A stretch of DNA of 64,000 nt, from the sequence record MT446390.1, one strand, 5' to 3'. Each line of letters opens with the position of its first letter. The stretch's first letter is position 1. This DNA comes from Escherichia phage TH12. Shown in pieces: positions 44,498 through 59,074 of this stretch. The position numbers and the translations under genes were made by a program. The notes under the pieces are model-generated. The model searched no databases and was not told the origin of the DNA. It was given only the letters and a program-made list of their open reading frames with translations.

Positions 44498-44537
44498 TAT
44501 AATGCCATGGACGGTAAACTAATTAAATGAGAGAAAT

Positions 44538-45173
44538 ATGAAAACTACACCAATCACTATCGCTATTGACGCAATCGTAAAACAAGCTTCATCTCTTGCC
44601 ACTATGGCTAAAGTAATTAGTCAAAACTCTGCCCGATATAATGCTATTCTTGAAACTCTTCGTCGCCCTGGACTGAGTAATTATGAAAGCCGAGTAATTA
44701 TTACAGGTGTTGGTAAGAACGCTAATATCGCAACTAAAGCTTCCGAGACTTTTGCTTCACTAGGTATTCCTAGCATGTATTTGAACACCGGGCATTATTC
44801 TCATGGCGACGCAGGGTTTATTGCACCTAATGATGTATTAGTTCACATCAGTCGTTCTGGTAAGACTGAAGAAATGATAGGTGTTGCTAAACATCTTCGT
44901 ATGATTCGTCCTCAGGTTAAACAGATTCTGTTACATTGTAACCCTGACATTCCGCAAGAATACGAAGCTCTTTTTGATTATACGTTCTGTACAGGCATCG
45001 CGGTAGAGGTTGATGAGAATTCTCTGGCTCCGACCATGTCCACTACATTGTTGTTAGCGCTTATCGATACGTTTGCTATCAACCTTTCGTCTGAACGTGG
45101 ATTTACCTCTAATGACTTCCTTAAGTTCCACCCTGGTGGTGCACTAGGTGCCATGTTACGAGGCGAACAATGA
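44538..45173 (+). CDS. SIS-domain sugar-phosphate isomerase (arabinose-5-phosphate isomerase-like)
   Basis: SIS motifs ITGVGKN and SRSGKTEE. Confidence 0.7.
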   Translation: MKTTPITIAIDAIVKQASSLATMAKVISQNSARYNAILETLRRPGLSNYESRVIITGVGKNANIATKASETFASLGIPSMYLNTGHYSHGDAGFIAPNDVLVHISRSGKTEEMIGVAKHLRMIRPQVKQILLHCNPDIPQEYEALFDYTFCTGIAVEVDENSLAPTMSTTLLLALIDTFAINLSSERGFTSNDFLKFHPGGALGAMLRGEQ

Positions 45174-45313
45174 AAGCAATAACAATAGGACTTTTACTAT
45201 TGATGCTTGTCATGACTATCTACTGGAGCTTAACGGCTCCAGTAATGATTCCGACTCTTATAATCGGATGGATTATGATTGGACTACAAACAAAGTATGA
45301 ATGCTTTAACTAG
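45170..45313 (+). CDS. small membrane protein (47 aa), absent from track
   Basis: ATGA-coupled to isomerase gene; hydrophobic throughout. Confidence 0.35.
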   Translation: MKAITIGLLLLMLVMTIYWSLTAPVMIPTLIIGWIMIGLQTKYECFN

Positions 45314-45326
45314 AATAGTGTACAAT
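45299..45326 (+). promoter_or_regulatory. candidate MotA-dependent middle promoter
   Basis: gaaTGCTTTA, 12 nt, TACAAT, about 30 nt upstream of ATG 45355. Confidence 0.35.
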
Positions 45327-45354
45327 ACACCTACTTACCAATGAGGACCACAAC

Positions 45355-47040
45355 ATGAAAAAAGCTGTTATTCTTGGTGCTGGACTGGCAACTCGTTTGT
45401 ATCCAATAACGCACCATATTCCTAAGGTGCTTGTTAACTATAAACAAGACACTATTCTGAGCAATTTGTATACAATTTATTCTGACCTTGGTGCAGATGA
45501 AATTATTGTAGTAGTTCATTCAAAATTTGTTGAAACTGTTCGAGCTTATTGTGAGCAAGAAGGGTTCAATGTGACTATTCGTACAGTTGATGAAGCGTAT
45601 GGTTCTGCTTATGCTCTTGCTAAATTATACAAAGATTTAGATGGCCATAATGTAATTGTTAACTGGTGTGATATTATTCCTGATTTTGGTTCATGGTCTT
45701 GGAATGTTAACGCAATCTATGTTAAGGGTGACGAATGTCGATATAATTTCGACGGTGAAAATATCACTAGCGTAGGTTCAACAGGTGGTAATGTTGTAGG
45801 AATTTATCAGTTCAAAGACTGGGAATTCTATATGGGTTCTACTGATGAGGAAATTCATGAATACTGCAAAGGACGTGATTTCGTAGAATTCCTTTACGGC
45901 AGCGCATTCAATAAATCAGAGCTTATGAATCTAATTGATTTAGGTGATATGCCTAAACTTGAAAAAGCTCATGAAGTTCGTGAACTTAATCGTAGTTTTA
46001 ATGCAGTTGAAATTGGTGAAGAAACTGTAACTAAATTCGCATTAACCGAACAGGGCCGAGCTCTTCAGAAAGATGAGATTTCATGGTATCTTAAAGTGAA
46101 ATCAGATTCAGTTCCTCAGTTAGTTTCTGTTAATGAAAATAACTTTGAAATGGAACGCATTAAAGGTAAGCCGGCATTTGAATATATTAAATCCAAATCG
46201 AGTCTTGCTCGTCCACAAATTGTTGATGCAATTTTAGATGCACTGAAATTCAGCACAGACACTTATTTTGTAAGTCCTGAAACTGTTCGTCGTGATTTCA
46301 CTAAAGAATTCTATACGAAAGTTATTGATCGTTGTGAAAGCATTCAACCATTGATTGATTCATTTGGTAAAATCACACATGTGAACTACACTAAGATTGG
46401 ACGTCTGAAGCCAATGCTGAAACAAGCTTTAGAACACCTTATTCGTTATCATAACCGTTCTCAGGGACAGTACTCTGTTATTCATGGTGACCCGAACTTC
46501 AGTAATACTATGATTACTGATAACGGCGAAGTCAAGTTTATCGACCCTCGTGGATATTTTGGCGAAACCAAGATTTACGGGCCAAAATTGTACGATGAAG
46601 CTAAAGTGCTTTATGCTGTTTCAGGTTATGATGAATTCAATGCTAATCCGACCTGGGGACAGTTTACTATTGATGAAACAACTTGTAATGTGACTATTAA
46701 CATCAATCCATTAATTTACAAATATGGAAAGATGAGTTCGTTTAACGAGTATCATCATTTGGCGGTGGCAATTATCTGGATTGCATTAGGTGGTTATTTC
46801 AAGAATAATCCACTTAAAGCGGTAGCCGCATATTATAAAGGTATGGAACTTCTGACTAAGCAATTACGCAACATGGGCCGTGTACTTCAAGACGGCTCTA
46901 TTAGTTATGACGTAGCAGAACCTGTAACGGCTACTCTGATTACAAAAAATCCTGGTAAATGGGTACTAACTGATAAAGAAACTGGTGTTTCCTATCGTCC
47001 AATCGGTGGCGATATCACTCATCAATGGGAACGAATCTAA
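45355..47040 (+). CDS. bifunctional sugar-1-phosphate nucleotidyltransferase / anomeric sugar kinase fusion (MurU-AmgK-like)
   Basis: N-terminus GAGLATRLYP; C-terminus HGDPNFSNTMI ... FIDPRGYFG. Confidence 0.65.
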   Translation: MKKAVILGAGLATRLYPITHHIPKVLVNYKQDTILSNLYTIYSDLGADEIIVVVHSKFVETVRAYCEQEGFNVTIRTVDEAYGSAYALAKLYKDLDGHNVIVNWCDIIPDFGSWSWNVNAIYVKGDECRYNFDGENITSVGSTGGNVVGIYQFKDWEFYMGSTDEEIHEYCKGRDFVEFLYGSAFNKSELMNLIDLGDMPKLEKAHEVRELNRSFNAVEIGEETVTKFALTEQGRALQKDEISWYLKVKSDSVPQLVSVNENNFEMERIKGKPAFEYIKSKSSLARPQIVDAILDALKFSTDTYFVSPETVRRDFTKEFYTKVIDRCESIQPLIDSFGKITHVNYTKIGRLKPMLKQALEHLIRYHNRSQGQYSVIHGDPNFSNTMITDNGEVKFIDPRGYFGETKIYGPKLYDEAKVLYAVSGYDEFNANPTWGQFTIDETTCNVTININPLIYKYGKMSSFNEYHHLAVAIIWIALGGYFKNNPLKAVAAYYKGMELLTKQLRNMGRVLQDGSISYDVAEPVTATLITKNPGKWVLTDKETGVSYRPIGGDITHQWERI

Positions 47041-47426
47041 TGCACCGTGTAGAAAACATGCTTAATCTTTGTTTTGATGTCGATGATTGTATAACAGAGT
47101 GGAATAACAATCGTGATTACGTGAACTTCAAACCAGACGTCGAAATGGTGTCTGCCATTAATGCCCTGTATGATGCAGGGCATACCATAACGCTTTACAC
47201 TGCTCGTGGTATGAAGTCAGTAGGTCCTGGTCGTATAGCAATTGACATTCTCCCAAGTCTGATTCAGAACTTGGCAAACATTGGCTTGAAGTACCATAAT
47301 TTGCTAACACATAAACCAGTATATGATTGGATTATCGACGACAAAGCTATGCGTCCTGACGAATTCAAAGCTCTTATGAATAAAGGCGAATTCGAAACAT
47401 TTAAATCGTATAAACCGAATCTATAA
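47040..47426 (+). CDS. HAD-superfamily phosphatase-like protein
   Basis: HAD motif I FDVDDCIT near N-terminus; start may be 47025 or 47058. Confidence 0.55.
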   Translation: MHRVENMLNLCFDVDDCITEWNNNRDYVNFKPDVEMVSAINALYDAGHTITLYTARGMKSVGPGRIAIDILPSLIQNLANIGLKYHNLLTHKPVYDWIIDDKAMRPDEFKALMNKGEFETFKSYKPNL

Positions 47427-47484
47427 TAATTTAAGTAAGACCTGCAAAAAAACCATCGCATCAATTAACGCGAGATGCAAAAAA

Positions 47485-48645
47485 ATGAATACTTTTAAAA
47501 TCGGAACGAATTTTGATTTAGCTCTTCTTGATAAAATCGTAGAGCTCAATAAAACCTATCCTAATAGCTTGATAAACGAAGTATATGGCTCTACAAGAGA
47601 AATGGCTTTTGTAGCAGCCAGACCTGATTTTAGGCTTCCTGACGTTGACAAAAAGATGTTAGAAGACTACGTTAAACGTTGTAACGAATTAGGTATTTGC
47701 TTTAACTATACACTCAACACGATAAATCCTGGTTCAAAAAGAGAACTAGTTGAGTGGAAGAAGAAAGCTATTCAGGATTATGTTCAGTATCTTTGGTCAA
47801 TAGGCGTATGGCGTATTACTATCGCTAACCCTGTTGTTATGGAAATTGTTCGTGAAGTCAATAAAGATATTGAGATTGAAGTTTCAACAATTCTACATGT
47901 CGATGCGGTAACTCAAATCAAATACTTACATGACCAATATAACATCAAAAAGGTCTGTTGCGGAATTCATAAGAACCGTTCAGTTTCTTTCCTGAAGCGT
48001 GCAGCAGAGTTTTGCAATAAGAACAATATAATATTTGAAGTTCTTGTAAATGAGTTCTGTTCTAATGCTGGTAAAGGGTATACAACACATTGTAGTTATC
48101 GTGACTCTTGCTATATTTTCCATAGTACTGATGTTACAGCTGATGATGCTAAATCCTTAAATGGATATCCAATGCAACACTGCATTAAAGCTCGTGATAC
48201 AGACCCATTTAACTGGTTGAGAACTCGTTTTGTTCGTCCTCAAGATTTGAAACTTTATAATGATATTGGTATCACTCAATTCAAAGTTTCAGGACGTACA
48301 GGTAGCACAGACTACATTTTGAAAGTTCTTGAAGCATACGCTTCTGAAAAGTTTGAAGGTAATTTGTTAGAACTGTGGAAGCCTTTAGAGACTATTTTCA
48401 CTCTTGAAAATGAGACTGAGTTTTCACATACAGTAAATATTGAAACCTCTTTGTTAGATGGCTTTTTAGAAAAAAGGTGGTTCAGACATCCAGATTTTGA
48501 TTGTGCTAATGAAATCTGTGGGTCAACGTGTACATATTGTGAAAGGTATTATAAACGTCAATTATCTAAAAACGGGTTAGCAGAAAACTCCATATCTATT
48601 ATTGATATAACTAACTCTGATGACGCTTTGAGGTACCCGGAATGA
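47485..48645 (+). CDS. Cys-rich putative Fe-S enzyme (386 aa); weak peptidase-U32-like features
   Basis: YTLNT motif, C-terminal CxxxCxxC; family call is tentative. Confidence 0.35.
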   Translation: MNTFKIGTNFDLALLDKIVELNKTYPNSLINEVYGSTREMAFVAARPDFRLPDVDKKMLEDYVKRCNELGICFNYTLNTINPGSKRELVEWKKKAIQDYVQYLWSIGVWRITIANPVVMEIVREVNKDIEIEVSTILHVDAVTQIKYLHDQYNIKKVCCGIHKNRSVSFLKRAAEFCNKNNIIFEVLVNEFCSNAGKGYTTHCSYRDSCYIFHSTDVTADDAKSLNGYPMQHCIKARDTDPFNWLRTRFVRPQDLKLYNDIGITQFKVSGRTGSTDYILKVLEAYASEKFEGNLLELWKPLETIFTLENETEFSHTVNIETSLLDGFLEKRWFRHPDFDCANEICGSTCTYCERYYKRQLSKNGLAENSISIIDITNSDDALRYPE

Positions 48646-48881
48646 TTTCTAGAAAAAGTTTTAATTATAAACTTAACGAAGAGATTTTGACTATGAAACT
48701 GAACACTAACGAACAAATTCTTAAAAAGGCCCTTATGGGCCTGTTTGAAACCAAAGCGGCTAAAGTGATTAAAGAACCTGTTCAATTGGAATACTACACT
48801 GATGCATTCCTTCATAGTGTTCTTGGAAGTATAGATTCTGAAGCTTTACGTTATATCAACATTGTCAAGAAATTCAAATAA
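48642..48881 (+). CDS. hypothetical protein (79 aa)
   Basis: ATGA overlap. Confidence 0.45.
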   Translation: MISRKSFNYKLNEEILTMKLNTNEQILKKALMGLFETKAAKVIKEPVQLEYYTDAFLHSVLGSIDSEALRYINIVKKFK

Positions 48882-48923
48882 GCTTTATGAATTGAGTATA
48901 TAATAAATTGTATTGAGGTAAAT

Positions 48924-49640
48924 ATGGGAAAACATAACACAATGAAATATATCAAAGCCGCAGATTTTCAAACCGCATTTAAAGCAGTCAATCGTGAAAT
49001 TTTAGAAAACCCCGAATTCGTAACTGATTCTCGTATTGGACGTTGTAATGAAATTGGGTCTATGACAGTAGTTGTTGACACTCCATCATCATTCAAAATG
49101 ACCGACCCACGTATTAACCGCATCTCTTATGAATATGCCGAAGACTTCTGGAAGTTTATGATTTCTGGTGGTACCAACGCAGAAGAAGCGTTTAAGGCAT
49201 ATCCTAATGTCGCTAAATTTATTTCTAAACCAAAATCAGATGTTTTGCCGGCGAACTTCAACACTTTCTATGGTCCTCGCATTGCGGCCCAATTACCAAC
49301 TCTTCTAAAAGAACTTAAAGAAAAACCTAACTCTCGAAGAGTTGTGTTCCAAATTCTAGAAAGTTCTGATCAGGCTTTGCTTGATTCGGACGAAACACTT
49401 GAATATCCATGTACTGACTCAGTAACTTATTATATTCGTGATGGTAAGCTTTATACCCACTGTCATATGCGTTCTCAGAACTGTGCTGTTGTTATGCAGT
49501 TGGATTTTTATCTCCAAGGAAAATTACTTCATTATATCGCTAACGAATGTGGTGTAGAAGTTGGTGATTATACTCATACCATGGTAAGTGCCCATGTGTT
49601 TGAACGTGATTTTGATTATGTTAAAGGATTCCTTGACTAA
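48924..49640 (+). CDS. 42: thymidylate-synthase-fold pyrimidine hydroxymethylase (dCMP hydroxymethylase, gp42 position), divergent
   Basis: NSRR, YPCTD, MRSQN..D motifs; position between 43 and uvsX. Confidence 0.6.
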   Translation: MGKHNTMKYIKAADFQTAFKAVNREILENPEFVTDSRIGRCNEIGSMTVVVDTPSSFKMTDPRINRISYEYAEDFWKFMISGGTNAEEAFKAYPNVAKFISKPKSDVLPANFNTFYGPRIAAQLPTLLKELKEKPNSRRVVFQILESSDQALLDSDETLEYPCTDSVTYYIRDGKLYTHCHMRSQNCAVVMQLDFYLQGKLLHYIANECGVEVGDYTHTMVSAHVFERDFDYVKGFLD

Positions 49641-52703: not shown

Positions 52704-54146
52704 GTGGTAGAAATTATTTTGTCTCATCTCGTATATGACCAGGCTTATTTTTCTAAGGTCTGGCCTTATATGGATTCTGATTACTTTGAGCGTGGACCGG
52801 CAAAAAATGTCTTTAAAATTATAAAGAACCACGTTAACGAATATAACGCAATGCCATCCATTAATGCATTAAAGGTGGCTTTAGATAACAGTTCTTTAAC
52901 TGAAGCCGAATATAAAGGAACTTCAGACTTAATTGAAAAATTGGCTGATACTCCTGAAGACCACGAATGGTTGGTTAAAGAAACTGAGAAATATGTCCAG
53001 CAAAAAGCGATGTATAATGCTACATCCAAAATCATTGAGATTCAGTCTAATGCTGAACTACCTCCAGAACAACGTAACAAGAAAATGCCTGATGTAGGAG
53101 CTATTCCTGATATTATGCGTCAAGCACTTTCAATTTCGTTCGATAGTTATGTTGGACATGACTGGATGGAAGACTACGAAGCACGCTGGCTTTCTTATCT
53201 AAATAAAGCACGTAAGGTCCCGTTCAAATTAAACATTTTGAATAAAATAACCAAAGGTGGTGCAGAAACAGGTACACTAAACGTTTTAATGGCCGGTGTT
53301 AACGTCGGTAAATCTTTAGGCCTTTGTTCACTTGCTGCAGATTATCTTCAAACAGGTCATAATGTTCTTTATATTTCCATGGAAATGGCTGAAGAAGTTT
53401 GTGCTAAGCGTATAGATGCAAACATGCTTGACGTATCACTCGATGATATCGATGATGGTAACGTATCTTATGCTGAATATAAAGCCAAGATGGAAAAATG
53501 GCGTTCAAAAACAACATTAGGACGTTTAGTAGTTAAACAGTATCCTACTGGTGGAGCTAATGCTAATACATTCCGTGCGTTGCTTAATGAGTTAAAACTT
53601 AAGAAGAACTTTGTGCCATCTGTAATCATGGTTGATTACTTAGGTATTTGTGGGTCTTGTCGTATCAGAGTTTACACTGAAAATAGCTACACATTAGTTA
53701 AAGCTATCGCAGAAGAACTTCGTGCATTAGCAGTAGAATCTGAAACAGTTCTATGGACTGCAGCTCAAGTAGGACGTGCAGCATGGGATGCTTCAGACAT
53801 GAACATGAGTGATATCGCAGAATCAGCAGGTTTACCAGCAACGGCAGATTTCATGTTGGCCGTAATTGAAACCGAAGAACTTGCACAAGCTGAACAACAA
53901 CTTATCAAACAAATCAAATCACGATACGGTGATAAGAATAAGTGGAACAAGTTCTTGATGGGTGTACGTAAAGGCAATCAGAAATGGGTTGAGATTGAGC
54001 AAGAAGGCATGAACACACCTAACACAGTAAATGAAAACGCAGGTGCTCAGATGCGTCAGGCAGAGGTGAATCGTACGGAACGCGTAGGTAAAGCCAAAGC
54101 AACACGTGCTGACCTAGATAGCTTAGCCAATGAGTTAAAATTTTAA
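52704..54146 (+). CDS. 41: replicative DNA helicase gp41; GTG start
   Basis: MVEIILSHLVYDQAYFSKVW ... Walker A GVNVGKS; AAGGAG 8 nt upstream of GTG. Confidence 0.95.
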   Translation: MVEIILSHLVYDQAYFSKVWPYMDSDYFERGPAKNVFKIIKNHVNEYNAMPSINALKVALDNSSLTEAEYKGTSDLIEKLADTPEDHEWLVKETEKYVQQKAMYNATSKIIEIQSNAELPPEQRNKKMPDVGAIPDIMRQALSISFDSYVGHDWMEDYEARWLSYLNKARKVPFKLNILNKITKGGAETGTLNVLMAGVNVGKSLGLCSLAADYLQTGHNVLYISMEMAEEVCAKRIDANMLDVSLDDIDDGNVSYAEYKAKMEKWRSKTTLGRLVVKQYPTGGANANTFRALLNELKLKKNFVPSVIMVDYLGICGSCRIRVYTENSYTLVKAIAEELRALAVESETVLWTAAQVGRAAWDASDMNMSDIAESAGLPATADFMLAVIETEELAQAEQQLIKQIKSRYGDKNKWNKFLMGVRKGNQKWVEIEQEGMNTPNTVNENAGAQMRQAEVNRTERVGKAKATRADLDSLANELKF

Positions 54147-54152
54147 TAAAAA

Positions 54153-54171
54153 GGAGACTTCGGTCTCCTTT
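54153..54171 (+). terminator. UUCG-tetraloop hairpin
   Basis: GGAGAC-TTCG-GTCTCC + TTT. Confidence 0.5.
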
Positions 54172-54234
54172 CGGGGTTTACATCTTCCTCTAGGCATGAT
54201 ATGATGAACTTACACCAACCAAGAGGAAAACATT

Positions 54235-54609
54235 ATGAATATGTCTCAAGCAATTTTTACTGCAATCACAGAAAACACAACTGTTGAAGTAGTTTCTCCA
54301 CTGGCAACCTACGTTATTCTTGCCCCTAAAACTATTGTATCTCGTATGGAAAACATGGGCAAACGTATCGTACAAATTGTCGGAGCCGGAAATCAAAAAC
54401 TTGATTATCTGCGAACCATCAAAGCTTATGAACATTTCCAACTCGAAAAAGGTTCTCCTATCCGGGTAGAACTCGTAAATGGTGATATCGTTCGAGCAAT
54501 GTTCCATCATTTCTATGCATTGAATGACCCATCTAAAGCGGTTCGTTTAATTGCATACGACGCAAACCAAAACGAAATCAACGCAGATATATCTAAATTA
54601 CGTTTTTAA
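54235..54609 (+). CDS. hypothetical protein (124 aa)
   Basis: AGAGGAAAA RBS. Confidence 0.5.
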   Translation: MNMSQAIFTAITENTTVEVVSPLATYVILAPKTIVSRMENMGKRIVQIVGAGNQKLDYLRTIKAYEHFQLEKGSPIRVELVNGDIVRAMFHHFYALNDPSKAVRLIAYDANQNEINADISKLRF

Positions 54610-54638
54610 GTTTACTTCTCCGGTAGTTGTGTTATTAT
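54610..54638 (+). promoter_or_regulatory. early promoter with inverted repeat CTCCGGTAGTTG/CAACTACTGGAG
   Basis: GTTTAC, 17 nt, TATTAT. Confidence 0.55.
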
Positions 54639-54664
54639 AGACCTATCAACTACTGGAGAACAAA

Positions 54665-54982
54665 ATGAAAACCATCGATTGTAAAGCAGAATTTAAGATT
54701 TTTTATCACGGTTCAAGTAGTTCAGCTAACATCGAAAACATGCTTTGTCCTCCTGAAGAAACAGGAGTTCTGTCTGAAACTGGACGTAAGAAAAACTTGG
54801 ATCGTGTATTCTTTACTGAAGATATCGGTTTAGCAAAGATTTATGCAGGACGAGCAGCACGCTCTTATGGAGGTGAACCACGTCTCTATCGAGTAATTTC
54901 TCCGGTAGACGTAGTTCAAATGAATAATACTAAAGGTGCTACAGTTTATCACGCTGAATGGGCCTTCTGTGAGGAAATATGA
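54665..54982 (+). CDS. hypothetical protein (105 aa)
   Basis: ORF. Confidence 0.5.
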   Translation: MKTIDCKAEFKIFYHGSSSSANIENMLCPPEETGVLSETGRKKNLDRVFFTEDIGLAKIYAGRAARSYGGEPRLYRVISPVDVVQMNNTKGATVYHAEWAFCEEI

Positions 54983-55170
54983 GCAAATTAACTAAAGTTA
55001 CTTTTATCGGTTGGTTTAAAAGCGGCGAGATGTTCACTAAAGATATCATGTTATCAGGTGATCGCGAAGAAATCGAGTGGGTTGCGGTACAACTTGCTGA
55101 AGTGAACAAAGCATTAGTTAAAGCATTTGTTAATGACGAGAAAGTTTTTGAAGCTGATTTCAGAGGATAA
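54979..55170 (+). CDS. hypothetical protein (63 aa)
   Basis: ATGA overlap. Confidence 0.45.
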   Translation: MSKLTKVTFIGWFKSGEMFTKDIMLSGDREEIEWVAVQLAEVNKALVKAFVNDEKVFEADFRG

Positions 55171-55171
55171 T

Positions 55172-55384
55172 ATGTATTCAACTGTGTTTAAACCATCGAC
55201 ATACGAATTTGCATCAACTACACAATGGAAAGCTCTTATTCTGGAAGGATGGGAACTAATGATGGACTGCGAAGCATCTGAAAAGTTTCCACACGGCAAA
55301 GTGGACTTCGTTAAATTTGCTGTACGTCCGACTAAACGACAAATTCGTCAAGAAAAACGCAAATTTCGCAAAAGTTTAAAATAG
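55172..55384 (+). CDS. small basic-tailed protein (70 aa; VRPTKRQIRQEKRK)
   Basis: Paralog of 26617-26787. Confidence 0.45.
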   Translation: MYSTVFKPSTYEFASTTQWKALILEGWELMMDCEASEKFPHGKVDFVKFAVRPTKRQIRQEKRKFRKSLK

Positions 55385-55386
55385 CT

Positions 55387-55416
55387 GTTTACAAGCACTA
55401 CATAATGTGTTACTAT
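55387..55416 (+). promoter_or_regulatory. early promoter (GTTTAC, 18 nt, TACTAT)
   Basis: Motif. Confidence 0.5.
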
Positions 55417-55444
55417 CTTTCTATCAACTACAGAGGAAATTGAA

Positions 55445-55813
55445 ATGAAAAAATTAATCACTTTAGCAATGGTATTTGGATTAACCGGATGTGGTGCCCA
55501 TGGCTTTATCCCTAATAATGTTGGCCAATTGATTTATAACCCGAATGTTAAACAGTACAACCAACCTAAAGTTGAAGTGGAAGACCCGGTTACTGTAGGT
55601 AATCGAATGATTCAAGCTGATGCCCATGCTCAACGTTATCGTGATTCTGATACTGTAGCATTGTCAAAAGAACAACGCGTTAAAGAACATTGTCTACAGG
55701 CTACTGAAATCGCATTCATTCGCTATGTTGAAACAACTGGTAAAGAGCCTTCCCAGAAACAAATCGCGAATAACTACGTCCAGTGTATTGAACGTTTAAA
55801 CAAATTTAATTAA
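55445..55813 (+). CDS. predicted lipoprotein (122 aa; lipobox LTGC)
   Basis: Signal peptide ending in lipobox Cys. Confidence 0.55.
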   Translation: MKKLITLAMVFGLTGCGAHGFIPNNVGQLIYNPNVKQYNQPKVEVEDPVTVGNRMIQADAHAQRYRDSDTVALSKEQRVKEHCLQATEIAFIRYVETTGKEPSQKQIANNYVQCIERLNKFN

Positions 55814-55874
55814 TTGGTTTACGCCAAAGTTAAAACAAGATACTATAAACATAACAAATCAAGAGGAAATTAAC

Positions 55875-56123
55875 ATGGAATTATTCGTAGCTAGTTCAGT
55901 AGCAGTTTTAATCGCAGGTATTGGTTCAATCATCATTTACATGTTGCCTTGGGTAATCGCACTTATTCGTGGCACAAAAAGCACAACAGCAATCTTCTTT
56001 GTATCTTTACTCTTTAACTGGACGATGATTGGTTGGATTGGAACTTTAATTTGGTCTATCGTTGCCGAAAAGAAATCTGCTCAGCAGCCTCAACAAGTAA
56101 TTATTATTCGCGAAAAAGAATAA
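55875..56123 (+). CDS. two-helix inner-membrane protein (82 aa); Imm-like size and topology
   Basis: Two hydrophobic helices. Confidence 0.45.
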   Translation: MELFVASSVAVLIAGIGSIIIYMLPWVIALIRGTKSTTAIFFVSLLFNWTMIGWIGTLIWSIVAEKKSAQQPQQVIIIREKE

Positions 56124-56127
56124 ACTT

Positions 56128-56158
56128 GTTTACATTATAGATGGACTATGGTATAGTA
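56128..56158 (+). promoter_or_regulatory. early promoter with palindrome
   Basis: GTTTAC ... TATAGT. Confidence 0.45.
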
Positions 56159-56186
56159 GTCCTATCAAATCAACTAAGGAGTTAAA

Positions 56187-56480
56187 ATGAAAAAGTTATC
56201 ATTGGCAGCAATCTTACTCGCAGTATCATGTGCACCAGCTCCAGTTACAGCAGGTTATGATAAAGACCTCTGTGAGTGGTCAATGACTGCAAATCAAGAA
56301 GATGTTGAACAACAAATCTTCTCTGATATCGTGAACATCACTAAACGAGACCGTCCTAATATGGTTAATAAAGTTGTTGAACAACTTAAGTCTGGCGGTA
56401 TCATGCAGTACAACTATGTTTTGTATTGTGACCCTAATTTCGATAACAAAGATATCGTAACCGAAATCACAGGTGAGTAA
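56187..56480 (+). CDS. sp: periplasmic Spackle-like protein (97 aa)
   Basis: Signal peptide then GYDKDLCEWSMTA, matching my recollection of T4 Sp. Confidence 0.6.
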   Translation: MKKLSLAAILLAVSCAPAPVTAGYDKDLCEWSMTANQEDVEQQIFSDIVNITKRDRPNMVNKVVEQLKSGGIMQYNYVLYCDPNFDNKDIVTEITGE

Positions 56481-56481
56481 T

Positions 56482-57132
56482 ATGATTTATTATATGCACA
56501 AAAATGCACCATTTAAATATGGTAAATTTCCTAATGCACAATGTTATAATATAACGCCGAATGAAAATAATAACGGATACCATATTGGTGTAATTTTTGT
56601 AATTGTTAAAGATAATGAAATCGTTGCCTGGGCAGATTTTAAAGGTACAACATATGATGTTAATCCTGTGCCTTTCACATATTACAATATAATGGATTTG
56701 GCATATGATTATAATTGGTTTACTCATGATACTCTGGCACATGTTGAAGGCGTAGGATTTGATATCTCTTATTCTAGTTATTCATTATGTCCTATGAGCC
56801 GAGCTCACGGTAAAGATGTATCATATCTTTCAATTCGGAAACGTGTAAACTTCAAACGTAGTACAGAGTATGTTGGTGGACTCTTTGTTAAAGATAATAA
56901 AATAACTCGTATTAGTTATCCTTTAAGTGTAGGTCAAAAAGATGTTGATGTTGATTTAGACTTAACTGAAAGTAACATTAATCGTATTGCTTCTGTATAT
57001 TTTGATATCGATGAAAAAATTGTAGTGTGTGGATACGAATTACCACCTGAAGAAAAGGTTGAAGCAATTGAAGTCGAATTAGAAATTTCTGTTGATGACC
57101 AAATATTTAATGCATTTATGAATCGAGGTTAA
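56482..57132 (+). CDS. hypothetical protein (216 aa)
   Basis: ATG 2 nt after upstream stop. Confidence 0.5.
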   Translation: MIYYMHKNAPFKYGKFPNAQCYNITPNENNNGYHIGVIFVIVKDNEIVAWADFKGTTYDVNPVPFTYYNIMDLAYDYNWFTHDTLAHVEGVGFDISYSSYSLCPMSRAHGKDVSYLSIRKRVNFKRSTEYVGGLFVKDNKITRISYPLSVGQKDVDVDLDLTESNINRIASVYFDIDEKIVVCGYELPPEEKVEAIEVELEISVDDQIFNAFMNRG

Positions 57133-57133
57133 A

Positions 57134-57331
57134 ATGACTACTGCAATTTGCACTGGTTCTAAAATTAGTGTTTTTACAAGTTTTGAAGATTATGAAGTTG
57201 TTTCAAAACACCAATACAATATTAGCGTAAAAGCTAATGATGGTGTAATTTGGAATATTCCACACTATGAAGACACTACATATGAAGTCACAGATGCGAA
57301 CGGTGATAAAGCGATCTTTGTGATTGATTAA
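57134..57331 (+). CDS. hypothetical protein (65 aa)
   Basis: ORF. Confidence 0.45.
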   Translation: MTTAICTGSKISVFTSFEDYEVVSKHQYNISVKANDGVIWNIPHYEDTTYEVTDANGDKAIFVID

Positions 57332-57350
57332 ATATACTCAGGAGGTACCT

Positions 57351-57818
57351 ATGGGTATTATTAACACTGCAATAGATTCTGTTTACGCATATAAGTTTAT
57401 TCGACTAATGCAAAAACCTTTTACCGAATGGAAAGCGTACGAAGCCAAAATAATCGACGAACGTGGAAGTGTTCTTAAACGTCCTTCTACTCCCGAAGAG
57501 AAAGCGGCTTATACACCTTTTCATGCTTCAGTTCGTTCAATGAAGCGAATGATGAGTACTGTTCCAGGTCTTAATGGAATGGCCTCAATGATGTCTGCCT
57601 GGAGTGCTGTAGCTTCACGCTATAACATTACAGAAGAACAGCAGAAAGAAATATTTAAAGAACTCCCTTTATTTGAGGATATGGTGGCTGGTGATTCAGG
57701 TGGCAGTCCTCAAGCTATTGCATCAGGAACTACTACAGGTGCAATTGTAAATAAAGGTCCAGAACAAATTCCTTCCAAGAAAAGAAAGCGAATTAAAGTA
57801 AATATTAATAAGTTGTGA
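57351..57818 (+). CDS. hypothetical protein (155 aa)
   Basis: ATG after AGGAGG. Confidence 0.5.
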   Translation: MGIINTAIDSVYAYKFIRLMQKPFTEWKAYEAKIIDERGSVLKRPSTPEEKAAYTPFHASVRSMKRMMSTVPGLNGMASMMSAWSAVASRYNITEEQQKEIFKELPLFEDMVAGDSGGSPQAIASGTTTGAIVNKGPEQIPSKKRKRIKVNINKL

Positions 57819-57857
57819 TAAGATGGCCTTATTAATTTAAGGCCTCTGGAGAATACT

Positions 57858-58880
57858 ATGGCTGAATGGATAGATAATGAATTTGCTTATCGTGCGTTTT
57901 CTCACCTCCCTCGTTTTAGACAAATCAATAATTCAAGCACATTTAAATTAACATTTCGTTGTCCAGTTTGTGGCGACTCTCAGACAGATGCAATGAAAGC
58001 CCGCGGATGGTATTATGGCGGTACTCCAGGTAATGTGCATTGCTATAACTGTCAATATCATAATACAATTTCTGGATACTTAAAAGAGTACGATGAAGAG
58101 CTTTATCGCGAGTATCTAATGGAAGTTCGTAAAGAAAAAGCTAGAATGGAACCAAAGATTGAAAAGGTTCCTGAAGCTAAGCCGGAGCCAGAGAAAAAGA
58201 CTATAAATTCTTTGCCGTCTTGTTCTCGTCTGGACAAGTTGCCTGAAGAGCATCCTATTGTGAAATATGTTAAGTCTCGGTGTATTCCTAAAGAATCATG
58301 GAACAGATTATGGTTCACATTAGAATGGCCCAAATTGGTCAACAAGATTCAACCTGGTACGTATAAGAAAGAGATTCCTGAACCGCGTTTAGTGATTCCT
58401 ATTTTTAATAAAGATGGGAAGGCCGAGTCATTCCAAGGACGTGCACTTCGTAAAGATGCTCCTCAGAAATATATCACTATTAAAGCGTTTGAGTCTGCAA
58501 CAAAAATTTATGGTGTTGAACGTGTTAAGGAAGGAGACGTCTGGGTAATGGAAGGTCCTATTGATAGTTTATTCATACCCAATGCAATCGCTATTACAGG
58601 CGGCTCAATAGATTTAGATGTGGTACCATTTAAAGAACGTCGGGTATGGGTAATGGATAATGAACCTAGGCATCCAGATACTATAGCTCGTATGAAGCGA
58701 TTAGTTGATGCAGGCGAACGTGTCATGTTCTGGGACCGAGCTCCATGGAGATCAAAGGATGTGAATGATATGGTAATGAAAGAAAATGCAACACCACAAG
58801 AAATTTTAGAATATATGAAACAGAATATTTCAAGTGGGTTGCATGCTAAAATGAGATTATCTCGTTATTCGAAGATTTAA
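57858..58880 (+). CDS. 61: DNA primase gp61
   Basis: WIDNEFAYRAFSHLPRF ... zinc ribbon CPVCGDS / CYNC; matches T4 gp61. Confidence 0.95.
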   Translation: MAEWIDNEFAYRAFSHLPRFRQINNSSTFKLTFRCPVCGDSQTDAMKARGWYYGGTPGNVHCYNCQYHNTISGYLKEYDEELYREYLMEVRKEKARMEPKIEKVPEAKPEPEKKTINSLPSCSRLDKLPEEHPIVKYVKSRCIPKESWNRLWFTLEWPKLVNKIQPGTYKKEIPEPRLVIPIFNKDGKAESFQGRALRKDAPQKYITIKAFESATKIYGVERVKEGDVWVMEGPIDSLFIPNAIAITGGSIDLDVVPFKERRVWVMDNEPRHPDTIARMKRLVDAGERVMFWDRAPWRSKDVNDMVMKENATPQEILEYMKQNISSGLHAKMRLSRYSKI

Positions 58881-59074
58881 ACAAGCCCTATAATAGCAAA
58901 GGCCAAATCAACTACAGTATCCAATGGAACAGAAGGAACTATAATACCATTAGCAACTAACAATGGTGCAATCCCGAAGTTCCATGAAATAATGCCACCT
59001 ACAACTATTGCAGCGATAGCAGTTTTCTTTTTATTGCCTTTAATAGCGTTGATTAACGATGGAAGTTTAAACAT
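58877..59074 (-). CDS. small hydrophobic membrane protein (65 aa) on the opposite strand
   Basis: AAGGAG 5 nt upstream of ATG on minus strand; sits in an otherwise empty gap. Confidence 0.5.
   Translation of the reverse strand: MFKLPSLINAIKGNKKKTAIAAIVVGGIISWNFGIAPLLVANGIIVPSVPLDTVVDLAFAIIGLV

Follow-up and report, generated by a model that had tools for sequence, protein, structure and literature searches.

The imm.1-imm-sp locus of phage TH12

Our analysis of 64,000 nucleotides of Escherichia phage TH12 (record MT446390.1; this whole stretch is referred to as the window) revealed three non-overlapping open reading frames on the plus strand that fill positions 55445-56480 and are separated by spacers of 61 and 63 bp. 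The first of them (55445-55813, 122 aa) encodes a protein with the lipobox LTGC and the domain DUF5481 and corresponds to imm.1 of phage T4. The second (55875-56123, 82 aa, PF14373) corresponds to imm and encodes a putative superinfection immunity protein of the inner membrane, and the third (56187-56480, 97 aa, PF25676) corresponds to sp and encodes Spackle, a putative periplasmic inhibitor of the gp5 tail lysozyme. All three proteins scored above the respective Pfam cut-offs, with 37.4 bits for DUF5481 (cut-off 27), 57.2 bits for Imm_superinfect (27.9) and 142.6 bits for T4_Spackle (27), and by tblastn each gene was detected once in the window. We identify the trio, which an earlier sequence-only reading had correctly delimited, by homology as orthologous to imm.1, imm and sp of T4.

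The DNA of the trio region is 98% identical to that of Escherichia phage PECP20 and 97.4% identical to that of RB69 (3.9 kb query), and at least 80% of the query was covered in 154 phage records. RB69 belongs to the genus Mosigvirus of the Tevenvirinae, and the window can be assigned to an RB69-like Mosigvirus T-even phage. The RB69 GenBank record (AY303349) gives the gene order 41, ORF041c, ORF040c, dmd, 61.4, imm.1, imm, sp, 61.2, ORF033c, ORF032c, 61.1, 61 and has contained the names imm.1, imm and sp since 2003. The genes, their order and the flanking genes (dmd and 61.4 before the trio, 61.2 after it) are the same in RB69 and in the window, and only strain-level differences separate the two, among them a single 164-aa ORF downstream of the trio in the window versus two ORFs in RB69. 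The layout is common to about 154 Mosigvirus genomes. The locus itself is thus already known, since it is annotated in RB69 and the functions of two of its three genes are known from T4; our literature searches found no experiment on the RB69-type proteins.

The 164-aa ORF (57324-57818, plus strand; phrog_2086) lies where RB69 has RB69ORF032c and 61.1. One CDS is annotated at the same position in CAU_ECP01, and over its C-terminal 40 aa the TH12 ORF has 72% identity to T4 gp61.1. The two ORFs of RB69 may stem from a frameshift in that record.

It is next to impossible that the three reading frames exist by chance or were mis-called as genes. Their small size, and nothing else, points in this direction, and the explanation is refuted by the homology results, with family E-values ranging from 3.7e-9 to 5.9e-42 and a solved structure matched over the full length. 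Moreover, the genes are conserved in 650-1040 phage records, and Shine-Dalgarno and promoter motifs are found ahead of each of them.

Imm and Spackle

The two-helix protein that had been described as being of Imm-like size from the sequence proved to be a true Imm orthologue. It is 65% identical to T4 Imm (83 aa, PF14373) over its full length (83 alignment columns, BLASTP E 3e-37) and matches PF14373 (1.5e-15) as well as phrog_1039 'immunity to superinfection' (9.9e-31). Two hydrophobic stretches are present as in T4, at about residues 1-34 and 40-59 by Kyte-Doolittle analysis, and the protein contains no cysteine. Residues R32 and W49 align with R33 and W50 of T4 Imm and are thus conserved. 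The genomic setting differs, in that T4 imm lies between genes 43 and 42 and has no promoter of its own, whereas imm of the window lies between 61.4 and sp and is preceded by its own promoter-like site.

According to one T4 preprint, which is our sole source for the mechanism, T4 Imm and the tape-measure protein's helical-bundle domain are purified together, exclusion is weaker with the substitutions W50A and R33A, and Imm is proposed by the authors to prevent assembly of the DNA conduit at the inner membrane (10.64898/2026.03.06.709160). By analogy to T4, Imm of TH12 would sit in the inner membrane and bind this domain in the tape-measure protein of an incoming phage, so that a DNA conduit through the inner membrane could not form. 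The preprint also covers the superinfection-exclusion protein gp15 of HK97, an inner-membrane protein blocking tape-measure-dependent DNA entry (10.64898/2026.03.06.709160), which by this description acts in an Imm-like mode but belongs to another type of phage, a siphovirus prophage.

The resemblance of the third protein to Spackle likewise turned out to reflect true orthology. Identity to T4 Sp is 65%, and the protein matches PF25676 with 5.9e-42 (residues 1-96 on positions 1-96 of 96) and phrog_1586 'spackle periplasmic' with 1.9e-41. Among PDB structures, 6x6o_A was matched over residues 1-97, i.e. the full length (E 5.4e-39), and 7cn6_A, which represents the mature form, over residues 23-97 (E 4.3e-33). 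Residues 1-22 are predicted to be a signal peptide, so that maturation would yield a protein with G23 (GYDKD) at its N-terminus. In an alignment of 17 homologues that cover five genera and have identities as low as 47%, the cleavage context PVTA/GYDKD is conserved, P19 and A22 are invariant, and the disulfide pair Cys29/Cys81 is likewise invariant; a third cysteine is located at position 15. T4 Spackle (gp61.3; PDB 6x6o, 6xc0, 7cn6, 7cn7) shares the length of 97 aa, the A/G cleavage context, Cys29/Cys81 and the downstream gene 61.2. It differs in its upstream neighbour, which is 61.4 in T4 and imm in the window, and in a lipobox-like motif, which reads LASC in T4 and AVSC in the window.

Overexpressed T4 gp61.3 was released from the periplasm lacking its first 22 residues and formed a 1:1 complex with gp5 (PMC7650644), and Spackle has been described to selectively inhibit the gp5 lysozyme (PMC7677548). 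If TH12 Sp behaves as its T4 counterpart, it would be exported by Sec, its 22-residue signal peptide would be removed, and it would then attach to gp5 at its lysozyme domain, on the tail spike of a phage arriving later, and thereby leave the cell wall undigested.

Within the Spackle signal peptide, Ser14-Cys15 is invariant in 17/17 homologues, and the flanking hydrophobic residues vary. The two residues belong to the lipobox-like motif at residues 12-15, which besides the window and T4 versions reads VASC in Dhakavirus and Gaprivervirus and VSSC in Jiaodavirus, and which is located upstream of the known signal-peptidase-I site at 22/23. A lipobox is not mentioned in either of two Spackle structure papers (PMC7650644, PMC7677548). 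The published N-terminal sequence of Sp comes from soluble material of an overexpressing strain (PMC7650644), so that a lipid-anchored fraction would have been missed. The motif itself may also mean nothing.

The putative lipoprotein Imm.1

The N-terminus of Imm.1 reads MKKLITLAMVFGLTGC and contains the lipobox LTGC at residues 13-16, with Cys16 and a Gly at position +2. The lipoprotein claimed by the sequence-only reading is thus present as a prediction, but it is no newcomer to the exclusion genes: it is the product of T4 imm.1, which is found directly upstream of imm. The T4 protein also has a lipobox, LAGC, at its N-terminus and in addition shares the motifs YNPNVKxY and YRxSD and the two C-terminal cysteines. 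Overall identity between the two is 32% (BLASTP E 8e-19), and the spacer to imm is 11 bp in T4 versus 61 bp, bearing a promoter, in the window. DUF5481 (PF17578, 3.7e-9) is the sole Pfam match of TH12 Imm.1 and phrog_1754 (1.8e-28), a family of unknown function, its sole PHROG match. The family is tiny, as a search of 1.84 billion representatives yielded 6 clusters at E <= 1e-3. By tblastn it was detected in 656 phage records, with either about 33% identity (T4-type) or at least 90% identity (RB69-type) and nothing else.

A lipobox Cys is found in five of the six intact Imm.1 sequences, one variant being without it. None of the intact sequences has an Asp at +2, and the C-terminal Cys83 and Cys114 are invariant. 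Lipoproteins of E. coli without Asp at +2 are sorted to the outer membrane, a rule that makes anchoring of Imm.1 in the outer membrane probable. These sequence features suggest that Imm.1 is an exported, probably outer-membrane-anchored, disulfide-bonded protein. The AlphaFold2 model, based on an alignment of 5 sequences, reached a mean pLDDT of 65, with only the C-terminal helical hairpin (residues 75-120) being confident, and Foldseek searches against PDB gave no fold match (best E 2.4). Our literature search on imm.1 returned only unrelated matches to journal abbreviations. Llp of T5 and Cor of phi80 and N15 are small early phage lipoproteins that block receptors, and they might be functional analogues of Imm.1; searches of Pfam, PHROG and, with Foldseek, PDB revealed no similarity in sequence or fold between them.

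Gene imm.1 is located directly upstream of imm in the window, RB69, T4 and the divergent metagenomic loci L008, L009 and L010, and for every divergent Imm.1 cluster with a readable contig the next downstream gene was a PF14373 imm. In the Jiaodavirus Klebsiella phage KEN25_1, a 147-aa 'hypothetical protein' encoded between 43 and imm (positions 1161-1604 of the locus, L012) appears to be a further LTGC lipoprotein. It has no Pfam match but shows the Imm.1-like mature N-terminal motif …VPASxVGxVR and two C-terminal cysteines, and it probably represents a distant homologue of Imm.1 that falls outside DUF5481. Dhakavirus and Gaprivervirus encode imm without an upstream imm.1. Considering this together with the range of the tblastn matches, Imm.1 is apparently not generally required by Imm.

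Imm.1 might nevertheless cooperate with Imm, for example as a protein anchored in the outer membrane that helps to trap or misdirect the incoming tail tip, in which case the trio would form a three-layer barrier. We regard this partnership as a rather doubtful proposition. The position of imm.1 directly upstream of imm wherever it was found (T4, window/RB69, the three metagenomic clusters and the remote Jiaodavirus homologue) would agree with it, as would the fact that the pair was kept together on relocation (see below), but such adjacency can be explained by tight linkage alone, the gap being 11 bp in T4. The lipobox in five of six intact sequences and the two invariant cysteines are what would be expected from an exported, disulfide-bonded partner, with the exception of the one variant that is without the lipobox Cys. 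Furthermore, Imm.1 evolves much faster than its surroundings (32% identity between T4 and the window compared to 57-85% for neighbouring genes), as is typical of proteins at a conflict interface, yet fold and family searches give no hint of a function. Immunity was reportedly obtained from imm alone in older cloning work, which counts against a partnership, as do the imm genes of Dhakavirus and Gaprivervirus that stand without imm.1. Likewise, the plaque assay and the point mutants with which Imm was studied in the T4 preprint never mention imm.1 (10.64898/2026.03.06.709160). Taken together, linkage to imm and fast divergence fit a functional tie but do not prove it.

Early promoters of the trio

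An early-promoter-like site was detected on the plus strand before each of the three genes. The site before imm.1 (55388..55416) consists of TTTACA, a 17 nt spacer and TACTAT, with TG before the -10 element. Before imm (55818..55846) we found TTTACG, 17 nt and TACTAT, and before sp (56129..56157) TTTACA, 17 nt and TATAGT, again with TG before the -10 element. In terms of the motif GTTTAC-N18-TAnnnT the sites begin at 55387, 55817 and 56128, within the 61-63 bp spacer ahead of each trio gene. This motif occurs 25 times in the whole window compared to 2.9 +/- 1.6 times in shuffled sequences, with 24 of the 25 occurrences on the coding strand, and the excess argues that the sites at the trio are genuine early promoters of the T4 type and not fortuitous matches. 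The claim of the sequence-only reading that every gene has its own early promoter is thereby confirmed at the level of the motif. A stricter sigma-70 scan recovered two of the three promoters and missed the one before imm. Each gene is also preceded by a ribosome-binding site (GAGG/AGGAG).

The whole interval between genes 41 and 61 is rich in such sites, with five near-identical early-promoter motifs within 2 kb (at 54176, 54610, 55387, 55817 and 56128). A search for terminators or stem-loops gave none between the trio genes and a single hit in 54000-58000, at 54750; the published model of promoter-plus-stem-loop cassettes is thus without direct support here. Rfam searches of 54000-58000 yielded zero RNA families.

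Comparison with T4 revealed that promoter and leader of imm.1 are homologous in both phages (CTGTTTACAAG...TACTAT...CTATCAACTAC), which indicates that the imm.1-imm pair moved with its own promoter. The gap between imm.1 and imm measures 11 bp without a promoter-like site in T4 versus 61 bp with such a site in the window. A derivation of the imm promoter of the window from the T4 sp promoter was considered but is not claimed, the similarity being not clearly above the shared promoter consensus.

The best explanation for the region, and one in which we have high confidence, is a superinfection-exclusion locus of an RB69-like Mosigvirus, expected to prevent DNA injection by a second phage, that comprises imm.1, imm and sp, each transcribed from its own host-sigma70 early promoter immediately upon infection.

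Relocation of the imm.1-imm pair

The genes of T4 follow the order 43-imm.1-imm-42 and, about 5 kb further on, 41-dmd-61.4-sp-61.2-61.1-61. In Dhakavirus QL01 and KIT01 and in Gaprivervirus P896, gene 43 is immediately followed by imm, and sp lies in the interval from dmd/61.4 to the primase gene; the Jiaodavirus order is 43-lipoprotein-imm-42 and 41-x-sp. In the window, imm.1-imm lies precisely between 61.4 and sp. From the gene orders of these outgroups we infer that the imm.1-imm pair, together with promoter and leader, was relocated from a site after gene 43 to the junction of 61.4 and sp, the site after gene 43 being the commoner and probably the ancestral one. Among the lineages compared, the rearrangement was observed in the RB69 lineage only. 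The sp gene has not moved, as it is found between 61.4 and 61.2 in T4, too. A metagenomic locus (L008) in which imm.1-imm follows a frd.3-like gene was considered as a third genomic context and discarded, since the end of gene 43 lies upstream and the site is of the T4 type.

The sequence-only reading had also stated that imm is missing from the 43-42 interval, and indeed tblastn searches of this interval (44498-48923) with imm, imm.1 and sp gave nothing better than E = 1. From this absence it had been concluded that envelope-directed exclusion functions may have been consolidated in this island between the helicase and primase genes. This conclusion is correct insofar as the exclusion genes adjoin here, unlike in T4; it does not apply to sp, which stayed in place while the imm.1-imm pair alone was relocated.

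The former site of imm.1-imm is now occupied by a cluster of sugar-nucleotide (DNA modification) genes. Between 43 and a dCMP-hydroxymethylase-like gene we found, at 44538-48881 on the plus strand, a SIS/GutQ-like gene and genes for proteins of 561 aa, 133 aa and 386 aa. The notes in the RB69 record for genes of the 43-42 region read 'similar to mannose-1-P guanyltransferase' and 'similar to dCMP hydroxymethylase'. The genes of this interval presumably correspond to the DNA arabinosylation cluster of RB69. The counterpart of gene 42 itself (48924-49640, plus strand) is 25% identical to T4 gp42, compared to 61-85% for the flanking replication genes, and its RB69 annotation reads 'similar to dCMP hydroxymethylase, td' only.

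Also within the interval, a hydrophobic ORF of 47 aa (45170-45313, plus strand; phrog_3610) shares 60% identity over 30 aa with a 49-aa ORF, unannotated, from the T4 spacer between imm and 42. In both phages the ATG of the small ORF and the stop codon of the gene before it overlap (ATGA), that gene being imm in T4 and the GutQ-like gene in the window, and a homologue follows imm in L008 as well. This ORF is not a remnant of imm, a possibility that we rejected as it has no match to PF14373; it is a separate conserved small ORF that stayed behind when imm.1-imm was relocated.

One account of how imm.1-imm came to lie beside sp involves no functional gain: the sugar-modification cluster took the site after gene 43, and the pair recombined into a promoter-rich spacer, landing beside sp by chance. 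We consider such a neutral by-product to be the probable, though by no means assured, origin of the arrangement. The five near-identical promoter motifs within 2 kb of the 41-61 interval offer many targets for homologous recombination, and the small membrane ORF located behind imm in T4 and left at 45170-45313 here fits a cut-and-paste of imm.1-imm only. As every gene has its own promoter, co-expression does not need adjacency, and in T4 and three other genera imm and sp function at a distance of about 5 kb. The side-by-side order is fixed in the approximately 154 sequenced Mosigvirus genomes, which might speak for selection, but these are close relatives and the evidence for selection is therefore weak. 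Because of the own promoters, the recombination targets provided by the promoter motifs and the separate location of the genes elsewhere, we rate a neutral relocation above selection for clustering.

Genes surrounding the trio

Directly downstream of sp, gene 61.2 (56473-57132, plus strand) matches the Pfam family AdfA (anti-DarT factor A) with an E-value of 1.4e-117. Three genes upstream of imm.1 lies dmd (54979-55170, plus strand), coding for the antitoxin-like 'discriminator of mRNA degradation'. With the AdfA-type 61.2, Dmd and the trio, the interval between genes 41 and 61 appears as a cluster of anti-defence and exclusion genes.

On the minus strand between the primase gene 61 and gene 56 we found a hydrophobic ORF of 65 aa (58877-59074; phrog_2024, of unknown function). 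RB69, QL01, P896 and the Jiaodavirus record contain an opposite-strand ORF of similar size right after the primase gene, the likeness being one of size and position only.

Implications for superinfection exclusion in T-even phages

The adjacency of the three genes, brought about by the relocation of imm.1-imm to a place beside sp, is real but ordinary. The value of the region as a discovery is small, since the RB69 record has given genes, names and positions from 2003 onwards and about 154 relatives look alike. The role of Imm.1 is the main question that deserves a bench test, and the lipobox of Spackle is a secondary one. T-even exclusion may have more outer-membrane-anchored parts than hitherto recognised, with Imm.1 as lipoprotein partner of Imm and Spackle as partly a lipoprotein, although we judge this unlikely. 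If both were true, the trio would represent a three-layer barrier composed of the inner face of the outer membrane, the periplasm and the inner membrane.

For the RB69 lineage, the gene order means that the site after gene 43 was exchanged for a DNA sugar-modification cluster without loss of the exclusion genes. The imm.1-imm pair behaves as one unit that is mobile between spacers rich in early promoters, which makes imm.1 the obvious candidate for a third exclusion function.
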